Origin: Spirochaetota bacterium
Lineage (GTDB): Bacteria > Spirochaetota > UBA4802 > UBA5550
Assembly (NCBI GenBank): GCA_042569985.1
Contig: JBHPHB010000001.1
Span: forward strand, 1,600 to 65,599
Length of the DNA stretch: 64,000 nt
Reading direction: 5' to 3'
Position numbers and translations under genes: made by a program. The number at the start of each line of letters is the position of its first letter. Position 1 is the first letter of the stretch. The notes below the pieces were generated by a model. That model was not told where the DNA came from, searched no databases, and saw only the letters and a list, made by a program, of their open reading frames with translations. Positions 3,537 through 50,836 of the stretch are shown one piece after another.

Positions 3537-3558
3537 TGTTTTACCGGGAATATCACCA

Positions 3559-3590
3559 AAGGCGATATGATATCATATCGCCTTTTTTTA
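3559..3590 (+). terminator. Rho-independent terminator after the VWA gene
   Basis: Perfect palindrome ggcgatatgat|atcatatcgcc followed by ttttttt. Confidence 0.7.
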
Positions 3591-3803
3591 TCTATTTAAA
3601 GGCTCAAAACCCATCAGGAGTTATTGGGTTGACTGAAAAATATAGTATAAATAAAATAGTTCTTGAAAATCTTCTATAAATTCATAATATATATTTTTTT
3701 ATAAATCTATCTAAAAAAAATTGAACTTATTTTTATTTCTTTGATAATAGTATATAAGATCTGGAATGTTGAATTAAGAATAAATTTAAGGGTTTAAAGT
3801 TAA

Positions 3804-4874
3804 ATGGAAGAGAAAAACAACCTTTCAAAAAAAATTCAGAAAATTAATAATTTAAACGAATATGAAAATTTATTAATTATAACGGAAAAAATAATCAGGC
3901 AGACTTTGAGCAATGAAATAAATTTGCTCAATTTTAAAAGTATACTTAATAAATTTGTTGATAAAATTTTTAAGGATGTGAAGGGCAATGAAGAGCTCTT
4001 TGTTACCCTAATATCATATATCGAGGGTAATAATAAATTTTTTGCACATTCCCTTAATACCGCCATATTTACTACAATATTTTGTATTTCCCTTGATATT
4101 GACGAAGATGACAGGAATACATTGATATCAACGGCACTTCTCCATGATATTGGAAAGCTGAAATATCATGATAAAATTCAGAAAAAGTATATATTGGACA
4201 ATGAAAGTATTAAAGATGTGGAGAAGAGTCATCCTGCCTGGGGTAAGAGACTCATACTATATCATCTGAGACTATCAAAAGAGATGGGTGAGTTAATTGC
4301 TAACCACCATGAAAATTTAATGGGTACGGGATTCCCTAATGGCCTGAAAGGGAGTGATCTGAGCCTCAATGATAATATCCTTATAACTTCAAATCTTCTG
4401 GAAAGAATATTGCAGAATATAAACTATGCAGGCATTGACCAGTTTGAAAAGACAATCGGATTTATGATGTCAAAGTATAAAAATCTTTTCAAGCCCGTCA
4501 TATCCAAAGTCATCTTAAGTCTATTCCAAATTGAAAACGAGAATAGAAAATACAAAAGATTTTCCATACAAAAAAATGGATACCTGGAAAGTCAAATCTC
4601 GAAGATACAATATCCCTGTGAACTTATTGACCTTTCGGCAGGGGGTGCTAAGATTTCATTGGAAAGAAAACTTCCCTCAGAGCTGATTTATAAAATAAAT
4701 ACGAAGCTTGCCAAAACTTTGAGCATCAGGAATAAAAGCTGCCGGATAATTCGGGAAAATGAAAGTGTAAAGGACTACGAATACGGTTTAGAGTTTTATA
4801 ATCCCGATGAAACAATTATTAAAAGTATTGAGCCAATCCTTGATGATAAAGCAACGAACCAGAAAATGAATTAG
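3804..4874 (+). CDS. HD-GYP-like phosphohydrolase domain fused to a C-terminal PilZ domain
   Basis: HD motif ALLHDIGK. HD-GYP-like stretch ANHHENLMGTGFPNGL (variant of HHExxDGxGYP, with D to M and Y to F). C-terminal PilZ-like ELIDLSAGGAKISL (DxSxxG). Confidence 0.6.
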   Translation: MEEKNNLSKKIQKINNLNEYENLLIITEKIIRQTLSNEINLLNFKSILNKFVDKIFKDVKGNEELFVTLISYIEGNNKFFAHSLNTAIFTTIFCISLDIDEDDRNTLISTALLHDIGKLKYHDKIQKKYILDNESIKDVEKSHPAWGKRLILYHLRLSKEMGELIANHHENLMGTGFPNGLKGSDLSLNDNILITSNLLERILQNINYAGIDQFEKTIGFMMSKYKNLFKPVISKVILSLFQIENENRKYKRFSIQKNGYLESQISKIQYPCELIDLSAGGAKISLERKLPSELIYKINTKLAKTLSIRNKSCRIIRENESVKDYEYGLEFYNPDETIIKSIEPILDDKATNQKMN

Positions 4875-4876
4875 TA

Positions 4877-5161
4877 ATGGACGTAGTAAAATTTTCTTTT
4901 TTATGTTTTCTGCTGTTTTTTTTACAATCCTGCACAAGTCAAAAGGTTAACCCCCGTGAATACTGCAAAGAGCGCTGTTACTATGTAAGGGTGGATTGTT
5001 TAGATATATGCCCGAAGAACAGTATTAACTTTTCTTATCGCTGGGATGATAAAGGCAGGAGTAAATTTTATAGCTGTTCTGAAAGGTGCATTGATAATTA
5101 TAAAAAATGCAGCAGGGGTTGTTTGAAAGTTAAGAATCTTTCTTCTGTTAAAAAGAATTAA
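4877..5161 (+). CDS. Small cysteine-rich lipoprotein, hypothetical
   Basis: Lipobox FLQSC after hydrophobic signal. 10+ Cys in 94 aa. Immediately follows HD-GYP-PilZ gene (2-nt gap). Confidence 0.4.
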   Translation: MDVVKFSFLCFLLFFLQSCTSQKVNPREYCKERCYYVRVDCLDICPKNSINFSYRWDDKGRSKFYSCSERCIDNYKKCSRGCLKVKNLSSVKKN

Positions 5162-5173
5162 GCAAGGTCTATC

Positions 5174-5893
5174 TTATTTTGCAAATATTCCATTCCACCA
5201 GTTGCCCCTTCGCAATACTTTTCCTTTTTTATCATAGAGAATACCTTTGCCATTTCTTTTCCCGTTTTTCCATTGGCCTATAAAGGTGGAGCCATCGGAA
5301 AAATTGAAAATACCCTCTCCCGATCTTTTTCCATTTTTCCATTGGCCTATATATTTTGTTCCCCTCGGCCATGTATAAGTCCCCTTGCCGTTGAATTTAT
5401 CATCTTTCCATTGTCCCTTATATTTTGATCCGTCTGCAAAAGTACAGTTGCCCTTTCCATTCCTTTTGCCCTTTCTCCAGTCCCCCATATACAGTGTCCC
5501 TCCGGGAAAGGAAAAAGTGCCTTTGCCATGCCTTTTGTTGTATTTAAATTGGCCAGTATATTTTGAACCGTCCGGGAATATATATGTACCGCTACCGTGC
5601 ATTTTATCATTTTTCCATTGTCCCGTGTATTTTGTTCCGGTTGGCCCGGTGGCAACTCCACTGCCATGCCTTTTTCCCTTTTTAAACTGCCCCTTGTAAA
5701 TGAATCCACTGGGAAGCATTAGGGTTCCACGGCCGTGCCTTTTACCCTTTTTAAACTGGCCCACATATTTACTTCCGTTATTTTTAATTTCGGTGCCATT
5801 GCCATTTTTACAATTTCCCCTGGTGCATTTTGCATGGGCATCTGAAAAAATGGAAAGAGAAGTAATTATAAGTAAAAGGTACAGATATTTCAT
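5174..5893 (-). CDS. MORN-repeat protein with signal peptide
   Basis: Reiterated YxGQ(F/W)KxGKRHGxGT units (e.g. YVGQFKKGKRHGRGT, YKGQFKKGKRHGSGV, YTGQWKNDKMHGSGT). The DNA repeat explains the in-repeat shadow ORFs on both strands. Confidence 0.8.
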   Translation of the reverse strand: MKYLYLLLIITSLSIFSDAHAKCTRGNCKNGNGTEIKNNGSKYVGQFKKGKRHGRGTLMLPSGFIYKGQFKKGKRHGSGVATGPTGTKYTGQWKNDKMHGSGTYIFPDGSKYTGQFKYNKRHGKGTFSFPGGTLYMGDWRKGKRNGKGNCTFADGSKYKGQWKDDKFNGKGTYTWPRGTKYIGQWKNGKRSGEGIFNFSDGSTFIGQWKNGKRNGKGILYDKKGKVLRRGNWWNGIFAK

Positions 5894-9199: not shown

Positions 9200-9448
9200 A
9201 TGAAATTTTATACGGACAGAAGGGCATTTAATCGAAGAATCGCCGATAGAAGAATCTCTGATGACAGGGATTATCATGGATATGACAGAAGGCTCAGGAT
9301 TGGTGATAGGCGAAAACTGGAGAGCAGAAGGTTATTTAACAGGGGATTTTCATATAGGGGTGTAAATAAAATTCACATTTCCCTGGGTTGCAATAAAGTG
9401 ACCGTAATGGCATTAGGGGACATGGCAGATAAGTTTTATTACAAGTAA
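9200..9448 (+). CDS. Hypothetical small arginine-rich protein (DRR/RR repeats)
   Basis: ORF only; DRR/DRRL reiterations. No clear RBS. May be non-coding. Confidence 0.25.
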   Translation: MKFYTDRRAFNRRIADRRISDDRDYHGYDRRLRIGDRRKLESRRLFNRGFSYRGVNKIHISLGCNKVTVMALGDMADKFYYK

Positions 9449-10320: not shown

Positions 10321-10566
10321 ATGGCTACTCAATCATCAAAACAATTAACGAACAATTTAAAAAGAAAGCAGGCCAAGGTTAAAAAGTTGGATGCTGAAAT
10401 TAAGAAGGAGAAGGGCATCATTGCAAAACTTCAGACTTCAATTACAGCTGCTAAAAAGCGTGAGCAATTAGCTAAGGCAAAAAAGGCTAAGAAAAAGCCA
10501 GCAAAAAAAGCTAAAAAGAAAGTTAAAAAGAAAGCTAAATCTAAAGCGAAAAAGAGAAAAAGATAA
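10321..10566 (+). CDS. Histone H1-like lysine/alanine-rich nucleoid-associated protein
   Basis: C-terminal KKAKKKPAKKAKKKVKKKAKSKAKKRKR tail typical of bacterial histone H1-like (Hc1-type) proteins. AT-rich promoter region upstream. Confidence 0.6.
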   Translation: MATQSSKQLTNNLKRKQAKVKKLDAEIKKEKGIIAKLQTSITAAKKREQLAKAKKAKKKPAKKAKKKVKKKAKSKAKKRKR

Positions 10567-10722: not shown

Positions 10723-12201
10723 ATGATAGATACATCAAAATTAGCCTCGACATTTACAAAAGACAGGGAAATATCAATTTCATTTGCATACCCCAGTGAT
10801 GAGGTATTCCTTTCGGTAAATTCCTTAATTGCAAAAATATTATCACAAGAAGATAAAATTTACCTTTTAGATTCTGTTTGCTCAATAATAAGAGAGACCA
10901 TACTAAACGCTGTTAAAGCTAATTTTAAAAGGGTGTTTTTTAAGAGCAGCGGCCTCGATATTCATACTCCCAAAGATTACGTTAAGGGAATGAGGGAATT
11001 CAAGAAATCAGTTATTATTGGCCAGGACAACTTCAGGGGTGAAATCACAGACAGTGAATATATAGTTGATATGAGGATAACCAAATCCCCTGATGGTATA
11101 ACCATTGCAATAGTAAATAACTTCAAAGTATTACCTGTAGAACTTGAGAGAATTAAATTCAGGATAATGACTGCAAAAAAAGCCCATAATTTTTCAGAAG
11201 CCTATGGTTCCGTGTCAGATAAAACTGAAGGTGCCGGCCTTGGTATTATCCTGTCAGTTTTTCTTTTAAAGAATGCCGGCATAGATTCTAATAGCTATAT
11301 AGTTACTGGCGACAATGAGTCTTTTAGTACGTCATTTCAAATACCGGCAAATATAAAGAAGATTGAAGCTACTTCATCCATTAAGGAAAAAATAATTAAT
11401 GATGTTAATGCTTTCCCCACGTTTCCCAAAAAAATAATGAAAATGCAATCATTGTGTAATGAACCCGAGGTTGAAATTGATGAAATAACATCGGAAATAA
11501 TACTTGATCCATCCCTTACTGCGGATGTTTTGAAACTGGCAAATTCAGCCGGTTTCATAACTGCAAAGAGAATTGAAAATATTAAAGATGCAATTATAAA
11601 AATTGGATTGAAAAACTTAAAATCAATACTTACCGCCACAACTGCCAGAAAAATACTGGACGACAGGTATAGTAAATTCGAGAAAATATGGGATCACTGC
11701 AATAAGGCAGCATTTTATGCCAGGGACATTTCATTAGAAATGGGTATGCCTTCTATAGCGGACAATGTATTTATATCCGGTCTGCTCCATGACATTGGGA
11801 AAATAGTTTTATTGTCTGCTGACATGAAACTTGTTGACGAGATTTCAGAAATTGCTTCGAGCAGACGGATTAGTGCAACATCAATAATTGAAGAGATATC
11901 AATTGGAATTAGCCATGTAACAATTGGAAAGCTCATTGCAGAGAAATGGAATTTCCCCGATTACCTTGTTGAAGCAATCAACGGGCACCACGCTCCGTTA
12001 AACGCACTGACCAGGCATAGAGATGTTGTTGATATAGTATACCTGGCGAATCTGCTTTGCGGGATAGAGGATGAAAAGTATAATTTCCATTTTATTGAAA
12101 CAGAAATTCTAGAAAAATTAAAAATCACTAAAAAAAATGATTTTAACGAGTTTAGAAAAAACCTGAAAAATAAATATGTTAAAAACTTATCATCGAAATA
12201 G
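10723..12201 (+). CDS. Two-domain signalling protein: N-terminal GHKL/anti-sigma-kinase-like ATPase-like region plus C-terminal HDOD domain
   Basis: N-box-like ETILNAVKAN and G2-box-like EGAGLGIILSV in the first 200 aa. C-terminal HDOD-type stretch SGLLHDIGKIVLL ... GISHVTIGKLIAEKWNFP. Confidence 0.55.
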   Translation: MIDTSKLASTFTKDREISISFAYPSDEVFLSVNSLIAKILSQEDKIYLLDSVCSIIRETILNAVKANFKRVFFKSSGLDIHTPKDYVKGMREFKKSVIIGQDNFRGEITDSEYIVDMRITKSPDGITIAIVNNFKVLPVELERIKFRIMTAKKAHNFSEAYGSVSDKTEGAGLGIILSVFLLKNAGIDSNSYIVTGDNESFSTSFQIPANIKKIEATSSIKEKIINDVNAFPTFPKKIMKMQSLCNEPEVEIDEITSEIILDPSLTADVLKLANSAGFITAKRIENIKDAIIKIGLKNLKSILTATTARKILDDRYSKFEKIWDHCNKAAFYARDISLEMGMPSIADNVFISGLLHDIGKIVLLSADMKLVDEISEIASSRRISATSIIEEISIGISHVTIGKLIAEKWNFPDYLVEAINGHHAPLNALTRHRDVVDIVYLANLLCGIEDEKYNFHFIETEILEKLKITKKNDFNEFRKNLKNKYVKNLSSK

Positions 12202-12212
12202 GAAATGCCGGT

Positions 12213-13916
12213 ATGGGCAAGTATACAGTTAAGGATACTCCATCCGGTGGGGCAACGCTTGTTTATAATGATTCCATAAGGCTTCATTCTGCCTATGATC
12301 CCGGAAAGGAAGCCCAGAGGGCGGTCTCTGCTTTTAAAGCCGGAAGGGCATCAATAATTCTTGTATCCGGGATGGGGCTGGCTTATCATGTTCAATCTTT
12401 GAAAAAAAAATACCCCCATGTAAATATTATTGTAATGGAACATGATGTTGAGGTTGTAGATATTGCAATGAAAATCTGTCCGGACCATTTAACAGATGTT
12501 GCAGTGGTTAACTCATCCTATGACCTTCCGAAAATATTTGAAGAACTTGATTTATCTGATTTTAAAGGAATATCCCTTTATACCCACAGGTCATCTTATC
12601 AAATTTATAAAGATTTTTATGATGGTATTATTAAGGATATATCACAATACATCTCTTCAAAGGTAAGTGACCTCCTCACAAGATTTGAGTTCGAAGAAAG
12701 ATGGGTTGAGAATATCTTCTCAAATATACCTTTGGTTTTTAAATCTTCCACTGTGATAAATTTATTCGGTAAATTTAAAGGCTACCCCGGTATAATTGTA
12801 TCCGCCGGCCCTTCATTGAGAAAAAATGTTGAGCTTTTGCACAAGATAAAGGACAAGGCACTCATAGTATGTGTTGATACCGCCATTAAAGTCTTAACCA
12901 GGAGGAATATTTACCCCCACATAGTAATGACCCTTGATGCCCAGGCATACAGCGTAAAGCATTTTCTCGGCCTTAGTAATTACTACCCCGTCCTTCTCGC
13001 GGATGTGGTGAGTAACCCCGGAGTGGCCAGACAATATAAAGGCAAAAAGGTTATCAGTACAACGGCAAAGTATTACACGGACAGCAGGGGTGAATCTAAA
13101 AGAGAAGCGACTCCCGTAATGGACTGGATTGAGAGATATATACCTCCAATTGGCGACATCCAATCGGGAGGTTCCGTAGCTACAAGCGTATTTGATCTCC
13201 TCCTGAATTTGGGATGTGACCCCATTGTCCTAATGGGCCAGGACCTTGCATATACTGGAAGGGAGATCCATTGCAGCGGCACCTACCATAATGATGACTG
13301 GCTGACGAAATATTCACGTGTACTTAATCTTGATACGATAAATCAAAGGGTAATTAGAAAAAGACAGATTAAATATGTTGATGCATATGGAAAATCGGGA
13401 AAGGTTATCTCCGATTTTGTTTTTGATTTATATAAGGGTTGGTTTGAGGATTCAGCCGGTAAAGTTAAAGCTGCAATTGTCAACTCCACAGAGGGGGGAG
13501 CTTTTATCAGGAATACGGTGGAGAAAAGCCTGGAGCAATTAATTAAGGAATCCCCTGACAGGAAACAAACACCCGGGGAGATTATTGACAGGTTTTTATC
13601 CGGTCATAATAAAACAGGGCACAATGAGTTTAATGAAGCACTAAAAAAAGCAGTGGCGGGAATAAATAAAATTTCCCAGATGTCACAGGATGCAATTGAA
13701 AATAATTTAGATACTGATTTGGCTGCATTAATTGATGATTATGATTTATCACTTTTATATAATCCCTACCTTAGAAAAACAAACACCTATCTTTCGCGGC
13801 ATGAAATTGAACCGGAAAAAGCTGTACTTATGATTAATAAAAATATTTTATCAGCTTCAAAAAAACTGGCCACCATTGTAAGCAACTGTGTTAAGAATCT
13901 CAATGCAACGCAGTGA
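12213..13916 (+). CDS. DUF115 (MptE-like / motility-accessory-factor Maf family) protein
   Basis: Central GIIVSAGPSL...CVDTAIKVL...LMGQDLAYT block characteristic of the DUF115/Maf family. Assignment from memory of the family consensus. Confidence 0.5.
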   Translation: MGKYTVKDTPSGGATLVYNDSIRLHSAYDPGKEAQRAVSAFKAGRASIILVSGMGLAYHVQSLKKKYPHVNIIVMEHDVEVVDIAMKICPDHLTDVAVVNSSYDLPKIFEELDLSDFKGISLYTHRSSYQIYKDFYDGIIKDISQYISSKVSDLLTRFEFEERWVENIFSNIPLVFKSSTVINLFGKFKGYPGIIVSAGPSLRKNVELLHKIKDKALIVCVDTAIKVLTRRNIYPHIVMTLDAQAYSVKHFLGLSNYYPVLLADVVSNPGVARQYKGKKVISTTAKYYTDSRGESKREATPVMDWIERYIPPIGDIQSGGSVATSVFDLLLNLGCDPIVLMGQDLAYTGREIHCSGTYHNDDWLTKYSRVLNLDTINQRVIRKRQIKYVDAYGKSGKVISDFVFDLYKGWFEDSAGKVKAAIVNSTEGGAFIRNTVEKSLEQLIKESPDRKQTPGEIIDRFLSGHNKTGHNEFNEALKKAVAGINKISQMSQDAIENNLDTDLAALIDDYDLSLLYNPYLRKTNTYLSRHEIEPEKAVLMINKNILSASKKLATIVSNCVKNLNATQ

Positions 13917-36216: not shown

Positions 36217-37851
36217 ATGAAAAAAAAAGATACCAGAATAATTATAGTGACCGGTGGTGTTTGTTCCTCCCTGGGGAAGGGCATTTCAATTGCTTCGCTG
36301 GGACTCCTCCTTGAAGGCCACGGATATAAAATATCAATTATTAAAATGGATCCATATATTAATATTGATCCAGGGACCATGAGTCCCTACCAGCATGGTG
36401 AAGTATATGTTACTGAGGACGGGGCTGAGACTGACCTTGACCTTGGGTATTACGAAAGATTTACAAATTCAAACCTTACCAGCAGAAATTCAGTATCTAC
36501 TGGTCAAATATATTATTCTGTTATTCTCAGGGAAAGAAAGGGCGATTATCTCGGCAGGACTGTGCAGGTGATACCCCACATAACTAATGAGATAAAAAAA
36601 AGAATTTATGATGTGGCCAATGATGAGGACCTGGATTTTGTTCTTGTAGAGATTGGCGGAACAGTGGGCGATATTGAATCGGTTCCTTTCCTTGAGGCCG
36701 TGAGGCAGATACGTCATGAGCTTGGCAGGGAAAGGGTTATGAATGTACACCTTACGTTAATACCGGTTATAACAGTTGCCGGTGAACAAAAAACCAAACC
36801 CACACAGCACTCTGTAAAGGAATTAATGGAGATTGGTATAATCCCCGATGTTCTTTTATGTAGAACGAGCCTTCCCCTGGCTGATGAATTAAAGAGTAAG
36901 ATCGCACTTTTTTGTAATGTTTCCGAAAAGAACGTCATTTCCGCGGAGGACATTAGCGGTTCAATATATGAAATTCCATATATGTTTCATAAAAATAATT
37001 ATGATAAAATTGTTCTTGAGCACTTCGGGCTCAAAGTTTCAAAATTAAAGCTTCCTGCCTGGGATAAGTTTCTTAAGGCATATCATAATCCCCTTAGAAA
37101 AGTAACAATTGCTGTTGTGGGGAAATATATCTCTCTTCAGGACTCCTACAGGTCCATTTATGAGGCCCTTTTTCACGGGGCCGTGGCTAACAGGGCGGAA
37201 CTTGAGATTGTTAGAATCGATTCTGAGGATATTGAAGGGATGACCCTGGCTAAGTTAAAAAGAAAATTTTCAAATGTTGACGGTGTCCTGGTGCCGGGGG
37301 GATTTGGAGTGCGGGGTATTGAAGGGAAAATTATGGCAATATCCTGTTTAAGAAAAAGCAAAATACCCTTTTTTGGAATCTGTCTCGGTTTGCATTGTGC
37401 TGTCATTGAGTTTGGCCGGAATGTATGCGGCCTTGAAAATGCAAATTCCACTGAATTTGAACCTGAAAATGAAAATCCTGTAATATCCCTCCTTGAAGAA
37501 CAGGAAATAATTGTAGATAAGGGGGGTACAATGAGGCTCGGTGCATTCTTGTGCAAATTTCAGGAGGGTAGTAAAATAAAAAAGATATATAATGTGGCTT
37601 CCGTAAAGGAGAGGCACAGGCATAGATTTGAGTTTACAATGAGGTATAAAGAATTATATGAGAAGAAGGGTATGAACTTTGGGGGGATTTATCCCACAAG
37701 TAATCTAGTTGAGACAATAGAGATTAAGGACCATCCCTGGTTTATAGCAACCCAGTATCATCCGGAATTCAAATCGAAACCTCATAAACCGCATCCCCTG
37801 TTCAGGGATTTTATTAGGGCATCAATTGAATATAGAGAGAAAAAGAAATAA
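36217..37851 (+). CDS. pyrG: CTP synthase
   Basis: N-terminus IIVTGGVCSSLGKG. C-terminal glutamine amidotransferase GICLGLHCAVIE. 544 aa. Confidence 0.95.
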   Translation: MKKKDTRIIIVTGGVCSSLGKGISIASLGLLLEGHGYKISIIKMDPYINIDPGTMSPYQHGEVYVTEDGAETDLDLGYYERFTNSNLTSRNSVSTGQIYYSVILRERKGDYLGRTVQVIPHITNEIKKRIYDVANDEDLDFVLVEIGGTVGDIESVPFLEAVRQIRHELGRERVMNVHLTLIPVITVAGEQKTKPTQHSVKELMEIGIIPDVLLCRTSLPLADELKSKIALFCNVSEKNVISAEDISGSIYEIPYMFHKNNYDKIVLEHFGLKVSKLKLPAWDKFLKAYHNPLRKVTIAVVGKYISLQDSYRSIYEALFHGAVANRAELEIVRIDSEDIEGMTLAKLKRKFSNVDGVLVPGGFGVRGIEGKIMAISCLRKSKIPFFGICLGLHCAVIEFGRNVCGLENANSTEFEPENENPVISLLEEQEIIVDKGGTMRLGAFLCKFQEGSKIKKIYNVASVKERHRHRFEFTMRYKELYEKKGMNFGGIYPTSNLVETIEIKDHPWFIATQYHPEFKSKPHKPHPLFRDFIRASIEYREKKK

Positions 37852-39137
37852 TGGAAGAAAATAATAGTAAAGACTATAATCTTGCCTACTTAGAAAGGCA
37901 AATGCATAATCTTACAAAGCTTGTGGGAATTAATAATATCATTAATTCCACGCTGGATATTAAAAAACTTCTTTCACTGATCATGGAAATAATTAAAGAT
38001 ATTATGGATGCCGAAGCAAGTACCCTGCTTTTATATGATGAGGAATCTGAAGCACTGGTTTTCAAGGTTGCATTGGGAGAAGCCGGGGAGGAACTCCAGG
38101 AGAAATACAGGGTTTCCCTGGGCCAGGGAATTGCAGGCTGGGTTGCACAAAACAGAAAACCGCTCAATGTCCTTGACGCATATACCGATGAGAGGTTTGA
38201 TCCAAATTTTGATAAAAAGACGGGCTTTAAAACCAAATCAATTCTCTGCACGCCACTGCTGTTTAAAGGCAAACTCCTTGGAGTAATACAGGCTATCAAT
38301 TCCATAACAAAACCGCATTTTGATGATGAAGATGTAAATCTTTTTAAAATTTTCAGTAATCAGGCGGCCCTTGCTGTCCAGAATGCCATGTTTTTCCAGA
38401 ATGCCCTGGAAGAAGAGAGGATTAAAATTGAATTGCAGTCGGCAAAATCAATTCATGAATCACTTGTCCCCATTTATGTAAATAAAATAAATAAGATCAA
38501 TATTGCGGCAAAATCTGTTTCGGCAAGAGAAGTGGGAGGTGAGTTTCATGGGGTGTACAAGATCAGCGATGACCATGTTGGTGTAGCTTTAGTGGATATA
38601 CATCAGAAAGGGCTTCCCGGGGGGCTTCAGGCATCAATAATGAGCGGGGCGTTGAGATCATTGGTATGGACAAAAGGTAAAAATCCTTCACACCTTATAA
38701 AAATACTAAACAGGATTATCTCCGATGATCTAAGTTCCATCAGCAATGTGTCTATCTTTTACGGTTTGGTCGACTGCAGTGAAAATACATTGAATTACAT
38801 TAAAGCCGGTGTTGTTTATCCCATTCTTGTGAGAAATAAAGTTGCCAGGTATTTCAGGTTTGACAGCAAATCTTTTGGCACCGAAAGTTCTGGAATAAAA
38901 AAGGTTAAGGTGAAATTACAAGCGGGGGATATGTTTGTAATAATTACTGACGGAATGCTTAATATTAAAAATAGAAATGGTGTGAAGCTTGGTTTAAAAG
39001 ATGTCATGGCCTGCCTTGAAGGTGATTTCAATAAGCCCGAAGAGGTAATAGAAGGGGTGATTGATTATACCGATAATTTTTATAATGGCCTGGAGAAGAG
39101 GGAAGATATCTCAATTGTTGTTTTTAAGGTAGACTGA
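37851..39137 (+). CDS. GAF domain plus PP2C-type (SpoIIE/RsbU family) serine phosphatase
   Basis: GAF-like N-terminal half. PP2C-like C-terminal half with GGEFHGVY...VALVDIHQKGLPGG...FVIITDGML. Start overlaps pyrG stop (taATGg). Confidence 0.7.
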   Translation: MEENNSKDYNLAYLERQMHNLTKLVGINNIINSTLDIKKLLSLIMEIIKDIMDAEASTLLLYDEESEALVFKVALGEAGEELQEKYRVSLGQGIAGWVAQNRKPLNVLDAYTDERFDPNFDKKTGFKTKSILCTPLLFKGKLLGVIQAINSITKPHFDDEDVNLFKIFSNQAALAVQNAMFFQNALEEERIKIELQSAKSIHESLVPIYVNKINKINIAAKSVSAREVGGEFHGVYKISDDHVGVALVDIHQKGLPGGLQASIMSGALRSLVWTKGKNPSHLIKILNRIISDDLSSISNVSIFYGLVDCSENTLNYIKAGVVYPILVRNKVARYFRFDSKSFGTESSGIKKVKVKLQAGDMFVIITDGMLNIKNRNGVKLGLKDVMACLEGDFNKPEEVIEGVIDYTDNFYNGLEKREDISIVVFKVD

Positions 39138-46332: not shown

Positions 46333-46719
46333 TTATTCAATTAAAAAGCTGAAGAAGTTTAATACTTCCGTTTCGGAGTGAAGAATCTTGATAAAGTTCT
46401 GCAGTTTGACAATTTTAAAAATATCTTTAATTTGAGACGGAACATCGAGAAAGGCAATTTCACCTTTATTGGCCCTTATTATTTTTGCTGTTTTTATAAA
46501 TGCGCCAATACCGGAACTGTCAATGTATTCCATTTCTTTCATGTCCACAATGATTTTTAATGCGCCTCCATTGATGAGAGTGTTTATGAAATGTATAATG
46601 TAATTTATATTACTCCCATCAACACCCTTTTTAAGGCATATTCTAAAAATAATATGATTGAAATTCAATGAGTCATCGGCAAGGGGATTGATTTTGATTA
46701 TATCACAGTGGACATCCAT
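46333..46719 (-). CDS. STAS-domain anti-sigma-factor antagonist (SpoIIAA/RsbV-like), paralog 4 of 4
   Basis: DMKEMEYIDSSGIGAFIKTAK. Conserved phosphorylatable Ser context DSSG. Confidence 0.75.
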   Translation of the reverse strand: MDVHCDIIKINPLADDSLNFNHIIFRICLKKGVDGSNINYIIHFINTLINGGALKIIVDMKEMEYIDSSGIGAFIKTAKIIRANKGEIAFLDVPSQIKDIFKIVKLQNFIKILHSETEVLNFFSFLIE

Positions 46720-46762
46720 TTATTAATCCTGTTGAAAATTATAAAATATATTTGGAACATTA

Positions 46763-47137
46763 TCATACATTAAGTTTAAGAAATTTTATCGCCTCTTCCT
46801 CTGATTCAAAGATTTGGATAAACCTTTGAAGGTTTACTGGCCTGAATATATTAAGAATGTTTTCGGGAACCCTGATTAATCCGATATCTCCTTTTTTTGT
46901 CCTTAACAATTTTGCGGAATTTATCAGCATGCCTATGCCCTGGCTGTCGATAAAATCTAAATTATTCATATCTATGATTATTTTATTGAGCCCGCCGTCT
47001 ATTAATGTTTTCAGGATTTTCCAGAGGTTATTTGTTTCATCTCTATCAATAACATCGGCTGCTTTTACTTTTAAGATGACGGAGTCATGTTCGATCTTTT
47101 CCTCATTCCTTGATGTTTGCAATATCGTGAAGTTCAT
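46763..47137 (-). CDS. STAS-domain anti-sigma-factor antagonist, paralog 3 of 4
   Basis: DMNNLDFIDSQGIGMLINSAK. RVPENILNIFRPVNLQRF. Confidence 0.75.
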   Translation of the reverse strand: MNFTILQTSRNEEKIEHDSVILKVKAADVIDRDETNNLWKILKTLIDGGLNKIIIDMNNLDFIDSQGIGMLINSAKLLRTKKGDIGLIRVPENILNIFRPVNLQRFIQIFESEEEAIKFLKLNV

Positions 47138-47179
47138 ATTAATTTATTATAAAATGAGAATATATAATCTCCCTTGTAT

Positions 47180-47560
47180 TTAATAATTATATAAAAATTC
47201 CAATGCTTCATTTTCTTTATCAAATATTTTTATAAAATTTTGAAGGTTAATAATCTTAAGTACATGTTTTATTTCATGGGGTACATTCATTATAACCAGC
47301 GTGCCGGAATTATCATTTAACTGCTTTGCTGTGTTTATTAGAATCCCAATGCCGGAACTGCTAATGTATTCTAAGTTTTCCATGTCTACAAGTATTTTTT
47401 TTGCCCCACCGCTAATTAATATATCCATGAACAATGACAGGTTATGGGAATTATCAATATTAATTTCATCGTACAACAGGGCCTTGAATATTATTTTGCT
47501 ATAATCAAAAATATCACTTTTTACCGTGGCCTCACATATTGTGTCAAAAGCTATTTTCAT
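47180..47560 (-). CDS. STAS-domain anti-sigma-factor antagonist, paralog 2 of 4
   Basis: DMENLEYISSSGIGILINTAK. NVPHEIKHVLKIINLQNF. Confidence 0.75.
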   Translation of the reverse strand: MKIAFDTICEATVKSDIFDYSKIIFKALLYDEINIDNSHNLSLFMDILISGGAKKILVDMENLEYISSSGIGILINTAKQLNDNSGTLVIMNVPHEIKHVLKIINLQNFIKIFDKENEALEFLYNY

Positions 47561-47594
47561 TAAAACCTCGTAATATTAGTATAAGTTATAATGG

Positions 47595-47966
47595 CTAAAA
47601 GTATAACGGTATATCCTCTTCCGATTTCAAAATCTTAACCAATTTCTGGAGATTAACTGTTTTAAAAATATTTTCAATATCTTCGGGAAGGTTAATTATG
47701 GCTGTATTCCCGCCTTCCTGATTCAGGGATTTTGCCGTATTGAATAGTACTGCTATTCCCGAACTGTCAATATATTCAAGGTCCATCATATCATATACAA
47801 TATATTTTATACCCCCTTTTATGGTGGTTGATAAGAAAATCCAGAGGTCCTTTGATGTATCAAAATCTAATACGCCTTTCAATTCGATTTTCATTACTAT
47901 TGTATCAAAATCAATCTCGTGGGTTAACCTGGGAGAGAGTTTTATGATCTTGCATATACTTTCCAT
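47595..47966 (-). CDS. STAS-domain anti-sigma-factor antagonist, paralog 1 of 4
   Basis: DMMDLEYIDSSGIAVLFNTAK. NLPEDIENIFKTVNLQKL. Confidence 0.75.
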   Translation of the reverse strand: MESICKIIKLSPRLTHEIDFDTIVMKIELKGVLDFDTSKDLWIFLSTTIKGGIKYIVYDMMDLEYIDSSGIAVLFNTAKSLNQEGGNTAIINLPEDIENIFKTVNLQKLVKILKSEEDIPLYF

Positions 47967-48076: not shown

Positions 48077-50836
48077 TTAAAAATTAAAATCCACAACGAC
48101 CATTGTAATGTCATCCTCCAATCCTTTTTTATTGTTAATTCCAGACCATTCTTTCACTGTATCTATGGATTTTTCCGTAAATTTTTCACAACTTAGATCG
48201 TGACTATTTAGAATTAAATTTTTAAAATTTTTATTACCGAACATTTCCCCCTTTTCATCCTTCGTTTCAAGTATCCCGTCTGTATACATTACAAAACGGT
48301 CCCCTTCTTCCAGGTCAAATTCATTAGTAGGAAAATTCTCTTCAGCCATCCAGCCAAAGGGCATGCCGTTATTTTCATTAAAAATTATTTCATTGTTCTT
48401 TTTTTTGTATAGAAGTGACGGCCAGTGTCCCGCGTTTGCCTGGTATAATTTTTTTTCTTCCAGGTCTATATATGCATAACATGCGGTGATAAATTGCCCT
48501 GATGTATGATTGAACATTGTCGCATTAATTTTAGACATGAGAACATCGGGCTTATCAGCATCTTCAAGAAAAAATGTGAATGTAACTCTCAACATGGCAC
48601 AAATAATTGCCGCCGGTATGCCGTGCCCGGATACATCGGCAATGAGAATGCCAACCTTTTTGTCGTCAATAACCTGGATGTCATAATAATCACCGCCAAG
48701 TTCAAACATTGGCTCATACTGAACTGATATTGCAAAATTTTTCCCCTGGGGAATATCCTTTAGTATTATACTGTCCTGGATCTCATGGGCTATATGAAGG
48801 TCCCTTTTCAGTGATGATAATTCATCGTGAATCTTAACTGAGTCTTTTAGCGATATTAAGTTGTTAACCCTGGCGATTAGCTCCATTTTGCTAACAGGTT
48901 TTGTAACATAATCATTAGCTCCGGCATCAATACCCGCGGCAATATCAGCGGGTTTGTTTTTCGCTGTGAGCATCAGTATGGGTAATTCATACTGAGAATA
49001 GGTTTTCCTCAATGTTGAACAGAGTTCATAACCTGACATTCTCGGGAGCATTACATCAAGGATGAGCAGGTTGGGCAATGCGTTTTCTTCAAATATTTGT
49101 AAAACCTCTGAGCCAGTTGTTGCCGTTATCACCTCATATCCCTCCAATGTGAGGTGATTCAATATAACCTTTATGTTGATGGGTTCGTCATCCACAACAA
49201 CGATCCTTTTCCCATTGAAGTTTTTAGGAGTATTGGCAACTTCAAAAATGGTTGAAGTATCCCTGTCTATTTTGTCAAGGTAATCTGTATTTATTTCAAG
49301 TGTGTTTTTAATATTTAAAACCAGTTGTTTTTCCTTTGATTCATTCAGGGAAAATGAAAAGCAGCTGCCCCTGCCGGGTGATGATTCAACCCATATTTCC
49401 CCTCCATGGAGCTCTACCAGTTTTTTTGCAATTGTAAGGCCCAGTCCTGTGCCTCCAAACTTTCTGGTTGCTGACCCGTCTACCTGCTCAAAGAGGTTGA
49501 ATACGCTTTTGATCTTTTCGGGGTGTATTCCCATTCCTGTATCTTTAACATTTATTATGATTTTATCATTAACGTGATCCTTTTGGGATGATATTTCAAT
49601 GCTGCCAGTTTCGGTAAATTTAACGGCATTGCTTAAAAGGTTCAGCATTATCTGCTGCAGCCTTATCTCATCTCCAAGAATGAATACTGATTCCGGATTT
49701 ATTTTATTCTTGATTTCGATGTTTTTGTTTTTCAGCAGGGGACTTATGATGGACATGATGTATTGTGTTATTGAATACATATCCACGGTTGACATGTTTA
49801 ATTTTATGTCATAATGCTTTAACTTAGAAAAATCCAGTATATCATTAATCAGTCCCGTTAGCTGTTTGCCGCTTTTTTTGATAAGTGATAAATTAAGTAT
49901 TGTCTCCACGTTAAGGCTTCCCGAAACACCCTCCAGGAGAGATTCGGTGAGCCCTATCATGCCGTATAGGGGAGTCCTGAATTCATGTGAAATGGTGGCA
50001 AGAAATTCATCCTTGAGGTTGTCAATCCTTCTGAGTTCCCTGTTGTTGTCCTGGAGCGCGCCAATTTCAAGTTTTATTACTTCCGCCAGGTGGTTAAATG
50101 TTCTGGCAAGCTTACCAAGTTCATCCTTTGAGCTGACGGGAATCCTGTAATTCAAGTCCCCGCTTCCGATTTCTTCCGCCCCGATTATTAACCTGTCAAT
50201 GGGTTTTGATATGAAACGGCTGAATACAAGGCCAATTATGATTGCAATAAGAATTGCTGAGAAAATTGATATGTATATAATATTCCTCAGTTTATTAATT
50301 GGTGAAAGTAGAATTGACTTGGAAAATATCAGCCTGCCCATGCAGTATGTTTTCCGCTGCAGGATTGCCCCCCGGGATATTATTTCATAGTAGGTATCAT
50401 CTATTTCGGGGACTTTAATTTCTCTAACCATATCGTTTTTAAAATTGCTGTCATATTTATGAGAAAGAATTAACTTCAGGGTGTCCGGGTTACTCTCAAT
50501 TATTTTATTTGTATAACTGGAAATTATTATACCATTGTACTTCTCATTAGGTGATATAAGGGTTGTATCAGCATAAAGCAGGCCCGTTTCTTTAAGAGGT
50601 TTAAGGATCGATAACATCTCTTTTGAGTCAATGCGTGTTGCCGTAATGCTTCCTCCGTTCATTATAAGAAGGTTTAAGGTGGACATTGCAAGAATTTTAC
50701 TGTTGATAATCCCCTGGTTTGTAAGAAGATCAATTTTTTCACTCTCCTGAATTTTGAGGATAAAAAACGAAATGGGCAGAGAGGCAATTAGTATTATTGA
50801 TATTAGCAGTAATATTAGTTTATATTTTATCTTCAT
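48077..50836 (-). CDS. Hybrid sensor histidine kinase - receiver - PP2C (SpoIIE/RsbU-type) phosphatase
   Basis: TM and periplasmic region, second TM, HAMP-like linker. H-box ATISHEFRTPL. HATPase GGTGLGLTIAKKLVELHGG. Receiver KRIVVVDDEP...LDVMLP...LMLTAK. PP2C GGDYYDI...ADVSGHGIPAA...MYTDGILE. Confidence 0.8.
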   Translation of the reverse strand: MKIKYKLILLLISIILIASLPISFFILKIQESEKIDLLTNQGIINSKILAMSTLNLLIMNGGSITATRIDSKEMLSILKPLKETGLLYADTTLISPNEKYNGIIISSYTNKIIESNPDTLKLILSHKYDSNFKNDMVREIKVPEIDDTYYEIISRGAILQRKTYCMGRLIFSKSILLSPINKLRNIIYISIFSAILIAIIIGLVFSRFISKPIDRLIIGAEEIGSGDLNYRIPVSSKDELGKLARTFNHLAEVIKLEIGALQDNNRELRRIDNLKDEFLATISHEFRTPLYGMIGLTESLLEGVSGSLNVETILNLSLIKKSGKQLTGLINDILDFSKLKHYDIKLNMSTVDMYSITQYIMSIISPLLKNKNIEIKNKINPESVFILGDEIRLQQIMLNLLSNAVKFTETGSIEISSQKDHVNDKIIINVKDTGMGIHPEKIKSVFNLFEQVDGSATRKFGGTGLGLTIAKKLVELHGGEIWVESSPGRGSCFSFSLNESKEKQLVLNIKNTLEINTDYLDKIDRDTSTIFEVANTPKNFNGKRIVVVDDEPINIKVILNHLTLEGYEVITATTGSEVLQIFEENALPNLLILDVMLPRMSGYELCSTLRKTYSQYELPILMLTAKNKPADIAAGIDAGANDYVTKPVSKMELIARVNNLISLKDSVKIHDELSSLKRDLHIAHEIQDSIILKDIPQGKNFAISVQYEPMFELGGDYYDIQVIDDKKVGILIADVSGHGIPAAIICAMLRVTFTFFLEDADKPDVLMSKINATMFNHTSGQFITACYAYIDLEEKKLYQANAGHWPSLLYKKKNNEIIFNENNGMPFGWMAEENFPTNEFDLEEGDRFVMYTDGILETKDEKGEMFGNKNFKNLILNSHDLSCEKFTEKSIDTVKEWSGINNKKGLEDDITMVVVDFNF

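Follow-up and report, generated by a model that had tools for sequence, protein, structure and literature searches.

What does a protein do when an apparently degenerate HD-GYP domain, of the type that degrades c-di-GMP (cyclic dimeric guanosine monophosphate), is joined to a PilZ domain, of the type that binds it? This question is raised by an open reading frame (ORF) at positions 3804–4874 of the 64,000-nucleotide stretch of Spirochaetota bacterium DNA analysed here, referred to below as the window. A first-pass annotation, made from the letters alone, had proposed that the product is either a ligand-gated phosphodiesterase (PDE) or a pure receptor, and judged from sequence these two options are still the leading hypotheses. 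The protein is best described as a non-canonical HD-GYP protein similar to Bd1817 of Bdellovibrio bacteriovorus and not as a true class II PDE, for several sequence features that define HD-GYP are missing although the fold and the His and Asp metal ligands are kept. It is tentatively read here, at a probability of roughly 0.45, as a c-di-GMP-gated non-canonical metallo-phosphohydrolase with weak or altered substrate recognition, rather than as a dead scaffold. The features on which the argument turns are the following.

3804..4874, + strand: complete ORF encoding the HD-GYP variant and PilZ, 356 codons, ATG start and TAG stop

3804..4028, + strand: N-terminal helical region (residues 1–75), AlphaFold2 helices at 3–33, 41–59 and 63–72

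4029..4523, + strand: non-canonical HD-GYP domain (residues 76–240), from Pfam HD/HD_5, alignment with PmGH, V-cGAP3 and Bd1817, and Foldseek

4143..4148, + strand: HD dyad (H114, D115), within LLHDIGK at residues 112–118

4305..4343, + strand: HHENLMGTGFPNG, the variant HHExxDGxGYP (residues 168–180)

4392..4394, + strand: N197, replacing the terminal metal-ligand Asp (PmGH D305) and equivalent to Bd1817 N265

4419..4430, + strand: I206-N-Y-A209, replacing the RxY[K/R] guanine-recognition motif (R314, K317)

4539..4829, + strand: PilZ domain (residues 246–342), from Pfam PF07238, the AlphaFold2 layout and Foldseek

4545..4559, + strand: RxxxR motif (R248-K-Y-K-R252), in the interdomain linker, a loop before strand 1

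4629..4646, + strand: [D/N]xSxxG motif (D276-L-S-A-G-G281, DLSAGG), at the end of strand 2

Both halves of the protein are recognised by Pfam above the gathering scores, as HD (residues 80–193, 5.2e-15), HD_5 (residues 90–203, 3.3e-13, 50 bits) and PilZ (PF07238, residues 246–342, 3.9e-09, 37.2 bits where the cut-off is 22.5, model positions 1–96 of 102). The best sequence matches in the PDB are all HD-GYP proteins, namely V-cGAP3 (5Z7C, 4.9e-16), PmGH (4MCW, 8.8e-12) and Bd1817 (3TM8, 8.3e-06), and the closest solved structures by sequence further include DvhD (9RBZ) and PA4781 (4R8Z), both HD-GYP as well. In a Foldseek comparison with the PDB, Bd1817 was the top HD-GYP match, and PilZ domains bound to c-di-GMP, those of BcsA, YcgR, MrkH, VCA0042, PP4397 and Alg44, were also recovered. 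The LLHDIGK motif, the HD-GYP-like domain and the PilZ segment claimed by the first-pass annotation are all borne out by these results. A generic HD domain, one of the two outcomes that would have told against the first-pass annotation, was rejected, because the protein has the HD_5 match and the HHE..G.G.P loop and its best matches are exclusively HD-GYP proteins.

The AlphaFold2 model, built on a shallow alignment of six sequences (mean predicted local distance difference test (pLDDT) 75.8, predicted template modelling score 0.67), is helical up to residue 240 and places six strands within residues 253–331 and a helix at 334–346; this predicted order is the canonical PilZ layout, in which a C-terminal helix follows a beta-barrel of six strands. 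Residues 1–75 have no Pfam match and no recognised domain, are the least conserved part in the family (23% identity), and probably form a stalk or lid preceding the HD-GYP domain. Matches to the YcgR-type PilZN (PF07317), even at E<=10, and to DUF3391 (PF11871) were absent from the protein in Pfam. The protein is soluble and cytoplasmic, with an HD-GYP-type domain joined to a canonical PilZ.

Every hallmark of PilZ that can be tested computationally is present: the model match, RxxxR, [D/N]xSxxG, and the barrel with its helix. The first-pass annotation had seen only DxSxGG and had treated a missing RxxxR as fatal to the PilZ assignment, but the canonical R248-K-Y-K-R252 stands 23 residues upstream of D276, and both of its arginines are invariant in 19 of 19 full-length relatives. 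In the same 19 sequences, S278 and G281 do not vary and position 276 is either D or N. With motifs so intact and invariant, the C-terminal domain would be expected to bind c-di-GMP. The pLDDT falls below 50 at residues 246–254, spanning the RxxxR linker, and such low values in the model would fit a flexible, ligand-free loop.

The RxxxR linker of two-domain PilZ proteins, of which VCA0042/PlzD and YcgR are examples, closes around the ligand and draws the neighbouring domain onto the barrel. By analogy, the PilZ barrel and the linker arginines would bind c-di-GMP; because RxxxR sits in the interdomain linker here too, binding would pull the barrel against the preceding HD-GYP-type domain and reposition it, and this re-orientation would alter what that domain does. 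The HD-GYP domain itself would hold a binuclear site of the Fe/Mn type, with Asn197 in the place of Asp as in Bd1817, and would act without any canonical guanine-reading side chain on c-di-GMP, pGpG or another nucleotide. The analysis shows what the domains are, the state of their motifs, conservation across the family and its rarity; from these, we infer metal binding, ligand binding, allosteric coupling and catalysis alike.

How much of an enzyme is left in the HD-GYP half was assessed by HMMER alignment to PmGH of Persephonella marina, the reference active HD-GYP (4MCW/4MDZ; the SEQRES numbering of 4MCW equals PmGH +6), with residue roles taken from the literature (10.1101/2021.11.05.467447; PMC4159591). 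Scoring of the metal ligands against PmGH, V-cGAP3 and Bd1817, a check of the kind that the first-pass annotation had suggested for RpfG-type domains, showed that all five His and the Asp of the HD dyad are kept (PmGH H189, H221/D222, H250 and H276/H277 correspond to H82, H114/D115, H143 and H168/H169), and that D305 has become N197; the seven ligands, including N197, are invariant in all 19 relatives. Also kept are E278 (E170) and G282, G284 and P286 (G174, G176 and P178), and K118 and E200 are counted as kept equivalents of K225 and D308, which are essential in PmGH (PMC4159591).

The losses are as extensive. The signature reads HHENLMGTGFP, in which HHE, both Gly and the Pro survive while D281 has given way to M173 and Y285 to F177, so that HHExxDGxGYP is not matched; the first-pass annotation was right about these two substitutions but caught only two of about eight deviations. 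Tyr and Phe alternate at position 177 across the family, which makes GFP a family trait. The D305 position is Asn in every family member; in 225 other HD-GYP domains, Asp accounts for 84% and Asn for about 10%, with DUF3391-HD-GYP proteins of Shewanella among those that have Asn. Asn at this position therefore marks a non-canonical subtype that recurs, rather than a peculiarity of this family. Neither RxYK position is Arg or Lys in any family member, and the second-guanine contact KPG (K235-P-G) is replaced by K128-Y-I, in a loop region where the alignment is less certain. At the position of the third metal ligand, E185, where an acidic residue defines the trinuclear subclass only, the protein has K78, which varies in the family, and it is consequently of the binuclear type at most.

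With the base contacts absent and the metal site under strict selection, the pocket may have been retargeted: PilZ would have taken over c-di-GMP recognition, and the substrate would be a signalling nucleotide other than c-di-GMP, pGpG and 3'3'-cGAMP being examples. This is rated unlikely; if true, second-messenger pathways of uncultured Spirochaetota would be in hard-wired cross-talk at this protein.

The protein is a lineage-restricted variant of an architecture that was already known, and its family is small. When 5.8 billion proteins were searched through a word index, only five other full-length relatives appeared (37–45% identity in BLASTP), all HD-GYP plus PilZ. Exhaustive profile searching, in which 1.84 billion cluster representatives were covered, gave about 20 full-length family representatives together with fragments. 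Only one further full-length member (locus L004) was found among 185,579 species-representative genomes, and all members bearing a name come from uncultured Spirochaetota metagenome-assembled genomes (MAGs). Conservation was assessed by column scoring and a 19-sequence full-length alignment with a mean pairwise identity of 31% (range 21–53%). Positions conserved in at least 90% of sequences comprise the seven metal ligands with N197, E170, D173, G174, G176, P178, R248, R252, S278 and G281, as well as a handful of others that are mainly glycines and hydrophobic residues. The HD-GYP region is the most conserved (38% identity), and the linker with PilZ stands at 25%.

A sister group (P0124 and P0126–P0131) has the same HD-GYP signature, with the Asn ligand and with neither the RxYK Arg/Lys nor KPG, lacks PilZ, and carries an unrecognised N-terminal extension of about 100–140 residues; the variant HD-GYP thus exists both with and without the PilZ fusion. 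The profile search also returned three distant HD-GYP-PilZ fusions with a near-canonical HD-GYP (P0195, P0208 and P0250), and of the 120 best relatives of P0195, only 6 have PilZ. The rarity claimed in the first-pass annotation accordingly stands. The fusion is uncommon but already documented, having been recorded since the original PilZ description by Amikam and Galperin in 2006, as cited in 10.1101/814665, and in ECA3548.

Public databases already annotate the protein generically, and in NCBI and JGI its relatives are labelled as HD, HD-GYP or RpfG-family PDEs. Taken at face value, these labels would make it an ordinary constitutive c-di-GMP PDE with PilZ as a tether or a vestige or, in the extreme form, a generic HD hydrolase with a non-binding PilZ-like barrel. 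The tolerance of PmGH to single-residue losses, described below, would allow such an enzyme. However, the PilZ motifs are invariant, so PilZ is not vestigial; HD_5 scores 50 bits here against about 140 in the canonical fusions; the base-recognition residues are all absent; and the best matches are HD-GYP proteins, which speaks against the extreme form. An ordinary PDE is thus very improbable.

Whether the HD-GYP half is nevertheless catalytic is the point on which the two leading hypotheses part. Inactivity inferred from motifs alone was rejected as unsafe, given the mutagenesis of PmGH, in which Y285A, R314A and K317A caused no substantial loss of activity and D305A left some detectable activity (PMC4159591); HdgA, moreover, hydrolyses c-di-GMP despite a Lys-to-Ser change in RxxK (10.1101/2021.11.05.467447), and in Bd1817 the Asn at this position, N265, still ligates metal M1 (PMC3188283). 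The most informative evidence on catalysis is the comparison with HD-GYP proteins proven to be dead. Those proteins, namely DvhD (PMC13090378), ECA3548, HnoD, whose HD-GYP is also degenerate (10.1101/2021.11.05.467447), and the non-catalytic VC1087 and VCA0895 (10.1101/2021.11.05.467447; PMC4212101), lost metal ligands, and this family has lost none. The retention of the ligands across such deep divergence, together with the tolerant PmGH mutants, favours the c-di-GMP-gated metallo-phosphohydrolase.

Several points weigh against that reading. Among characterised HD-GYP proteins, Bd1817 alone combines this Asn ligand with a broken GYP, and once purified it neither bound c-di-GMP detectably in vitro nor had measurable PDE activity (PMC3188283). 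The consensus Asp that is Asn in Bd1817 has been proposed as the acid-base catalyst (PMC3188283), and it is this Asp that is replaced here. D183, essential in PmGH (PMC4159591), corresponds to N76 and is unconserved in the family. M173 is private to the window protein, 18 of 19 members having Asp there. The deviations are stacked (N197, F177, D173M, and no RxYK, KPG or E185), a combination that single-mutant experiments do not cover. A partner gene or conserved neighbourhood indicating a substrate or pathway was not found, and the model behind the predicted layout was built on only six sequences.

The Bd1817 precedent, the unconserved D183 and the stacked deviations keep a non-catalytic alternative close behind, doubtful as it is. 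The protein would then be a c-di-GMP receptor or adaptor and nothing more, in which PilZ binds the ligand and the HD-GYP-like domain, metal-bound but inert, serves as a protein-interaction output surface. An output of this type has been proposed for ECA3548 and for RpfG-GGDEF contacts made through the GYP loop, and ECA3548 affects c-di-GMP phenotypes without hydrolysing the messenger (10.1101/2021.11.05.467447; PMC4212101). The disappearance of the RxYK, KPG and Tyr contacts, together with M173, is also in keeping with a receptor. Such an adaptor sits poorly with seven ligands strictly kept at 21–53% identity in the most conserved half of the protein, with the ligand losses of the proven non-catalytic proteins, and with the lack of a conserved partner gene at the family loci.

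The same pattern, metal ligands conserved and substrate contacts not, could also be explained if the di-metal (Fe) site were not a catalyst but a sensor of redox state, O2, NO or metal. In such a coincidence detector, the state of the site and the occupancy of PilZ by c-di-GMP would jointly control a partner. It has been shown that HD-GYP activity depends on the oxidation state of Fe (10.1101/2021.11.05.467447). This wholly inferential proposal is nonetheless rather improbable, since a pure redox-sensor HD-GYP is without precedent and gene context lends it no support.

If the c-di-GMP-gated metallo-phosphohydrolase is the correct reading, with the HD-GYP half active and under PilZ control, the protein would be a compact, single-protein device for second-messenger-gated hydrolysis, serving c-di-GMP feedback or nucleotide cross-talk. 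In either case, the counting of c-di-GMP turnover enzymes in spirochaete genomes is affected, because annotation calls relatives 'c-di-GMP phosphodiesterase' from domain matches alone.

The product of the gene is identical to the NCBI entry P0001, 'HD domain-containing protein [Spirochaetota bacterium]', which derives from a MAG. The ATG start is supported because the N-termini of relatives, such as MEEK... in the L004 homologue, align with the 356-residue protein from residue 1. Upstream lies a 267-bp AT-rich spacer with promoter-like hexamers, and two elements were located ahead of the gene.

3558..3585, + strand: terminator-like hairpin with a 12-bp stem (5 G-C pairs) followed by a T-run, called strong

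3629..3657, + strand: top sigma-70-like promoter match in the spacer, TTGACT-17-TAAAAT, 10 of 12 positions, putative and a consensus match only

The hairpin closes the upstream vWA/YfbK-like gene and separates it from the HD-GYP-PilZ gene. In the whole 64-kb window there are neither tRNA genes nor Rfam families at the gathering score, and hence no c-di-GMP riboswitch upstream of the gene.

Downstream, a 94-codon ORF (4877–5161, + strand) starts 3 nucleotides past the stop codon. It encodes a hydrophobic N-terminus with a possible lipobox (FLQSC) and about nine Cys in the predicted mature part, has no match in Pfam, NCBIfam or PADLOC, and has no counterpart beside family members at other loci. 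Co-transcription with the HD-GYP-PilZ gene is possible, but this ORF may not be a real gene. Convergent with it is a gene (5174–5893, − strand) for a 239-residue protein with a signal-like N-terminal segment and eight MORN repeats (Pfam 1.5e-57).

The surroundings are those of an ordinary chromosome, with a GC content of 36.9% and genes for MscS, ComEC, rhomboid, an HDOD protein, Mfd, CTP synthase and ThiC, for nicotinamide adenine dinucleotide and thiamine biosynthesis, and for partner-switching regulators. GGDEF and EAL domains were found in none of the 39 larger ORFs scanned in the window. There is no conserved neighbourhood, as the flanking genes differ at each of six family loci (L001/L002, L003, L004, L084/L085, L086/L087). 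Seven kb from the HD-GYP-PilZ gene is a gene of the MptE/PseD-like, flagellin-modification type (12213–13916, + strand), preceded by a gene (10723–12201, + strand) for an HDOD-domain protein in which about 230 residues at the N-terminus are unassigned. A distant MptE/PseD-like homologue (L084, 3373–4857, − strand) lies directly upstream of the family member P0112. This proximity hints weakly at a connection with motility, and it was rejected as pathway evidence, the two copies being only 25% identical. Rhomboid neighbours were likewise set aside, because the one near P0117 bears no relation to the one in the window. An anti-phage defence role was rejected as well: in PADLOC the protein showed only a weak resemblance of a generic kind to Cas3-HD, and the neighbouring genes gave no match.

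Elsewhere in the window, four tandem paralogous ORFs of about 125 residues (46333–47966, − strand), all STAS/anti-sigma-factor-antagonist proteins, adjoin the gene for a 919-residue HAMP-HisKA-HATPase-REC-SpoIIE hybrid kinase/phosphatase (48077–50836, − strand), and together they are an expanded partner-switching module. That the genome is rich in signalling genes is also indicated by a GAF-SpoIIE (PP2C-type) phosphatase gene (37851–39137, + strand), whose first base is also the final one of the CTP synthase stop codon. Two small ORFs are of unusual composition: an 82-codon ORF (9200–9448, + strand) with many repeated (D/N)RR units (DRRAFNRRIADRRISDDRDYHGYDRRLRIGDRRKLESRR) and no Pfam match, and an 81-codon ORF (10321–10566, + strand) for a very Lys/Ala-rich, histone-H1-like basic protein with a KKAKKKPAKKAKKKVKKKAKSKAKKRKR tail.

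Among the closest known systems, Bd1817 is the top structural match for the N-terminal two-thirds of the protein. Both have Asn at the terminal ligand (N265 and N197), a degenerate GYP loop without Tyr, a replaced consensus D of HHExxDG and no RxYK, and the metal site of Bd1817 is binuclear. They differ in that Bd1817 has an N-terminal DUF3391, no PilZ, and Glu in place of the second His of HH (HE), whereas the present protein keeps HH and its residues 1–75 are predicted to be all-helical, with no DUF3391 match, which places it outside the Bd1817 family. With PmGH the protein shares the fold and the kept residues given above, from H189, H221, D222, K225 and H250 to H276, H277, E278, G282, G284 and P286; it is without E185, D183, KPG, D281, Y285, D305, R314, K317 and the GAF domain of PmGH, and has PilZ in addition.

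The canonical fusions (the P0195 clade, the GAF-HD-GYP-PilZ protein P0208, and P0250) have the same order of HD-GYP then PilZ, and their two PilZ motifs are intact or close to it, the motif Ser being Gly in P0195. In contrast to the window protein, they keep D305, the GYP Tyr and the motif Lys, and their HD_5 matches reach about 140 bits (E about 1e-40). P0195 and P0208 have an intact KPG where P0250 has KSG, the RxYK Arg is found in P0195 only and is Asp in the other two, and some of these proteins bear GAF or possibly HAMP sensor domains, the HAMP match of P0250 being sub-threshold. The PilZ half of the window protein showed no pairwise BLAST similarity to those of the P0195 clade, which suggests, as far as sequence can tell, separate fusion events or a very deep divergence. 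A single origin of all HD-GYP-PilZ fusions is for the same reason unsupported, yet PilZ domains diverge fast.

DvhD of Desulfovibrio vulgaris (9RBZ), an HD-GYP-derived receptor with c-di-GMP bound in the HD-GYP pocket (PMC13090378), likewise uses a diverged HD-GYP in c-di-GMP signalling rather than in simple turnover and has Asn at the D305 position. Its pattern is the inverse of the present one: the ligands are lost (HD to SQ, HH to MN) and the GYP and Arg-rich base contacts are kept, while in the window protein c-di-GMP binding would be delegated to PilZ. ECA3548 of Pectobacterium atrosepticum, an inactivated HD-GYP fused to PilZN-PilZ (10.1101/2021.11.05.467447), is the sole experimentally studied protein with an altered HD-GYP and a canonical PilZ. 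Its description sets it apart, for it has lost ligands (HD to HT, HHE to ANE) and has a YcgR-type PilZN, whereas the window protein keeps its ligands and has no PilZN, and is therefore not of the ECA3548 type. If the HD-GYP half is inactive, ECA3548 would be joined by an independent second protein in which a PilZ receptor uses an HD-GYP scaffold as its output; if that half is active and controlled by PilZ, the protein would be a natural experiment on which HD-GYP residues matter, with the metal site kept and the base contacts lost, in a mirror image of DvhD.

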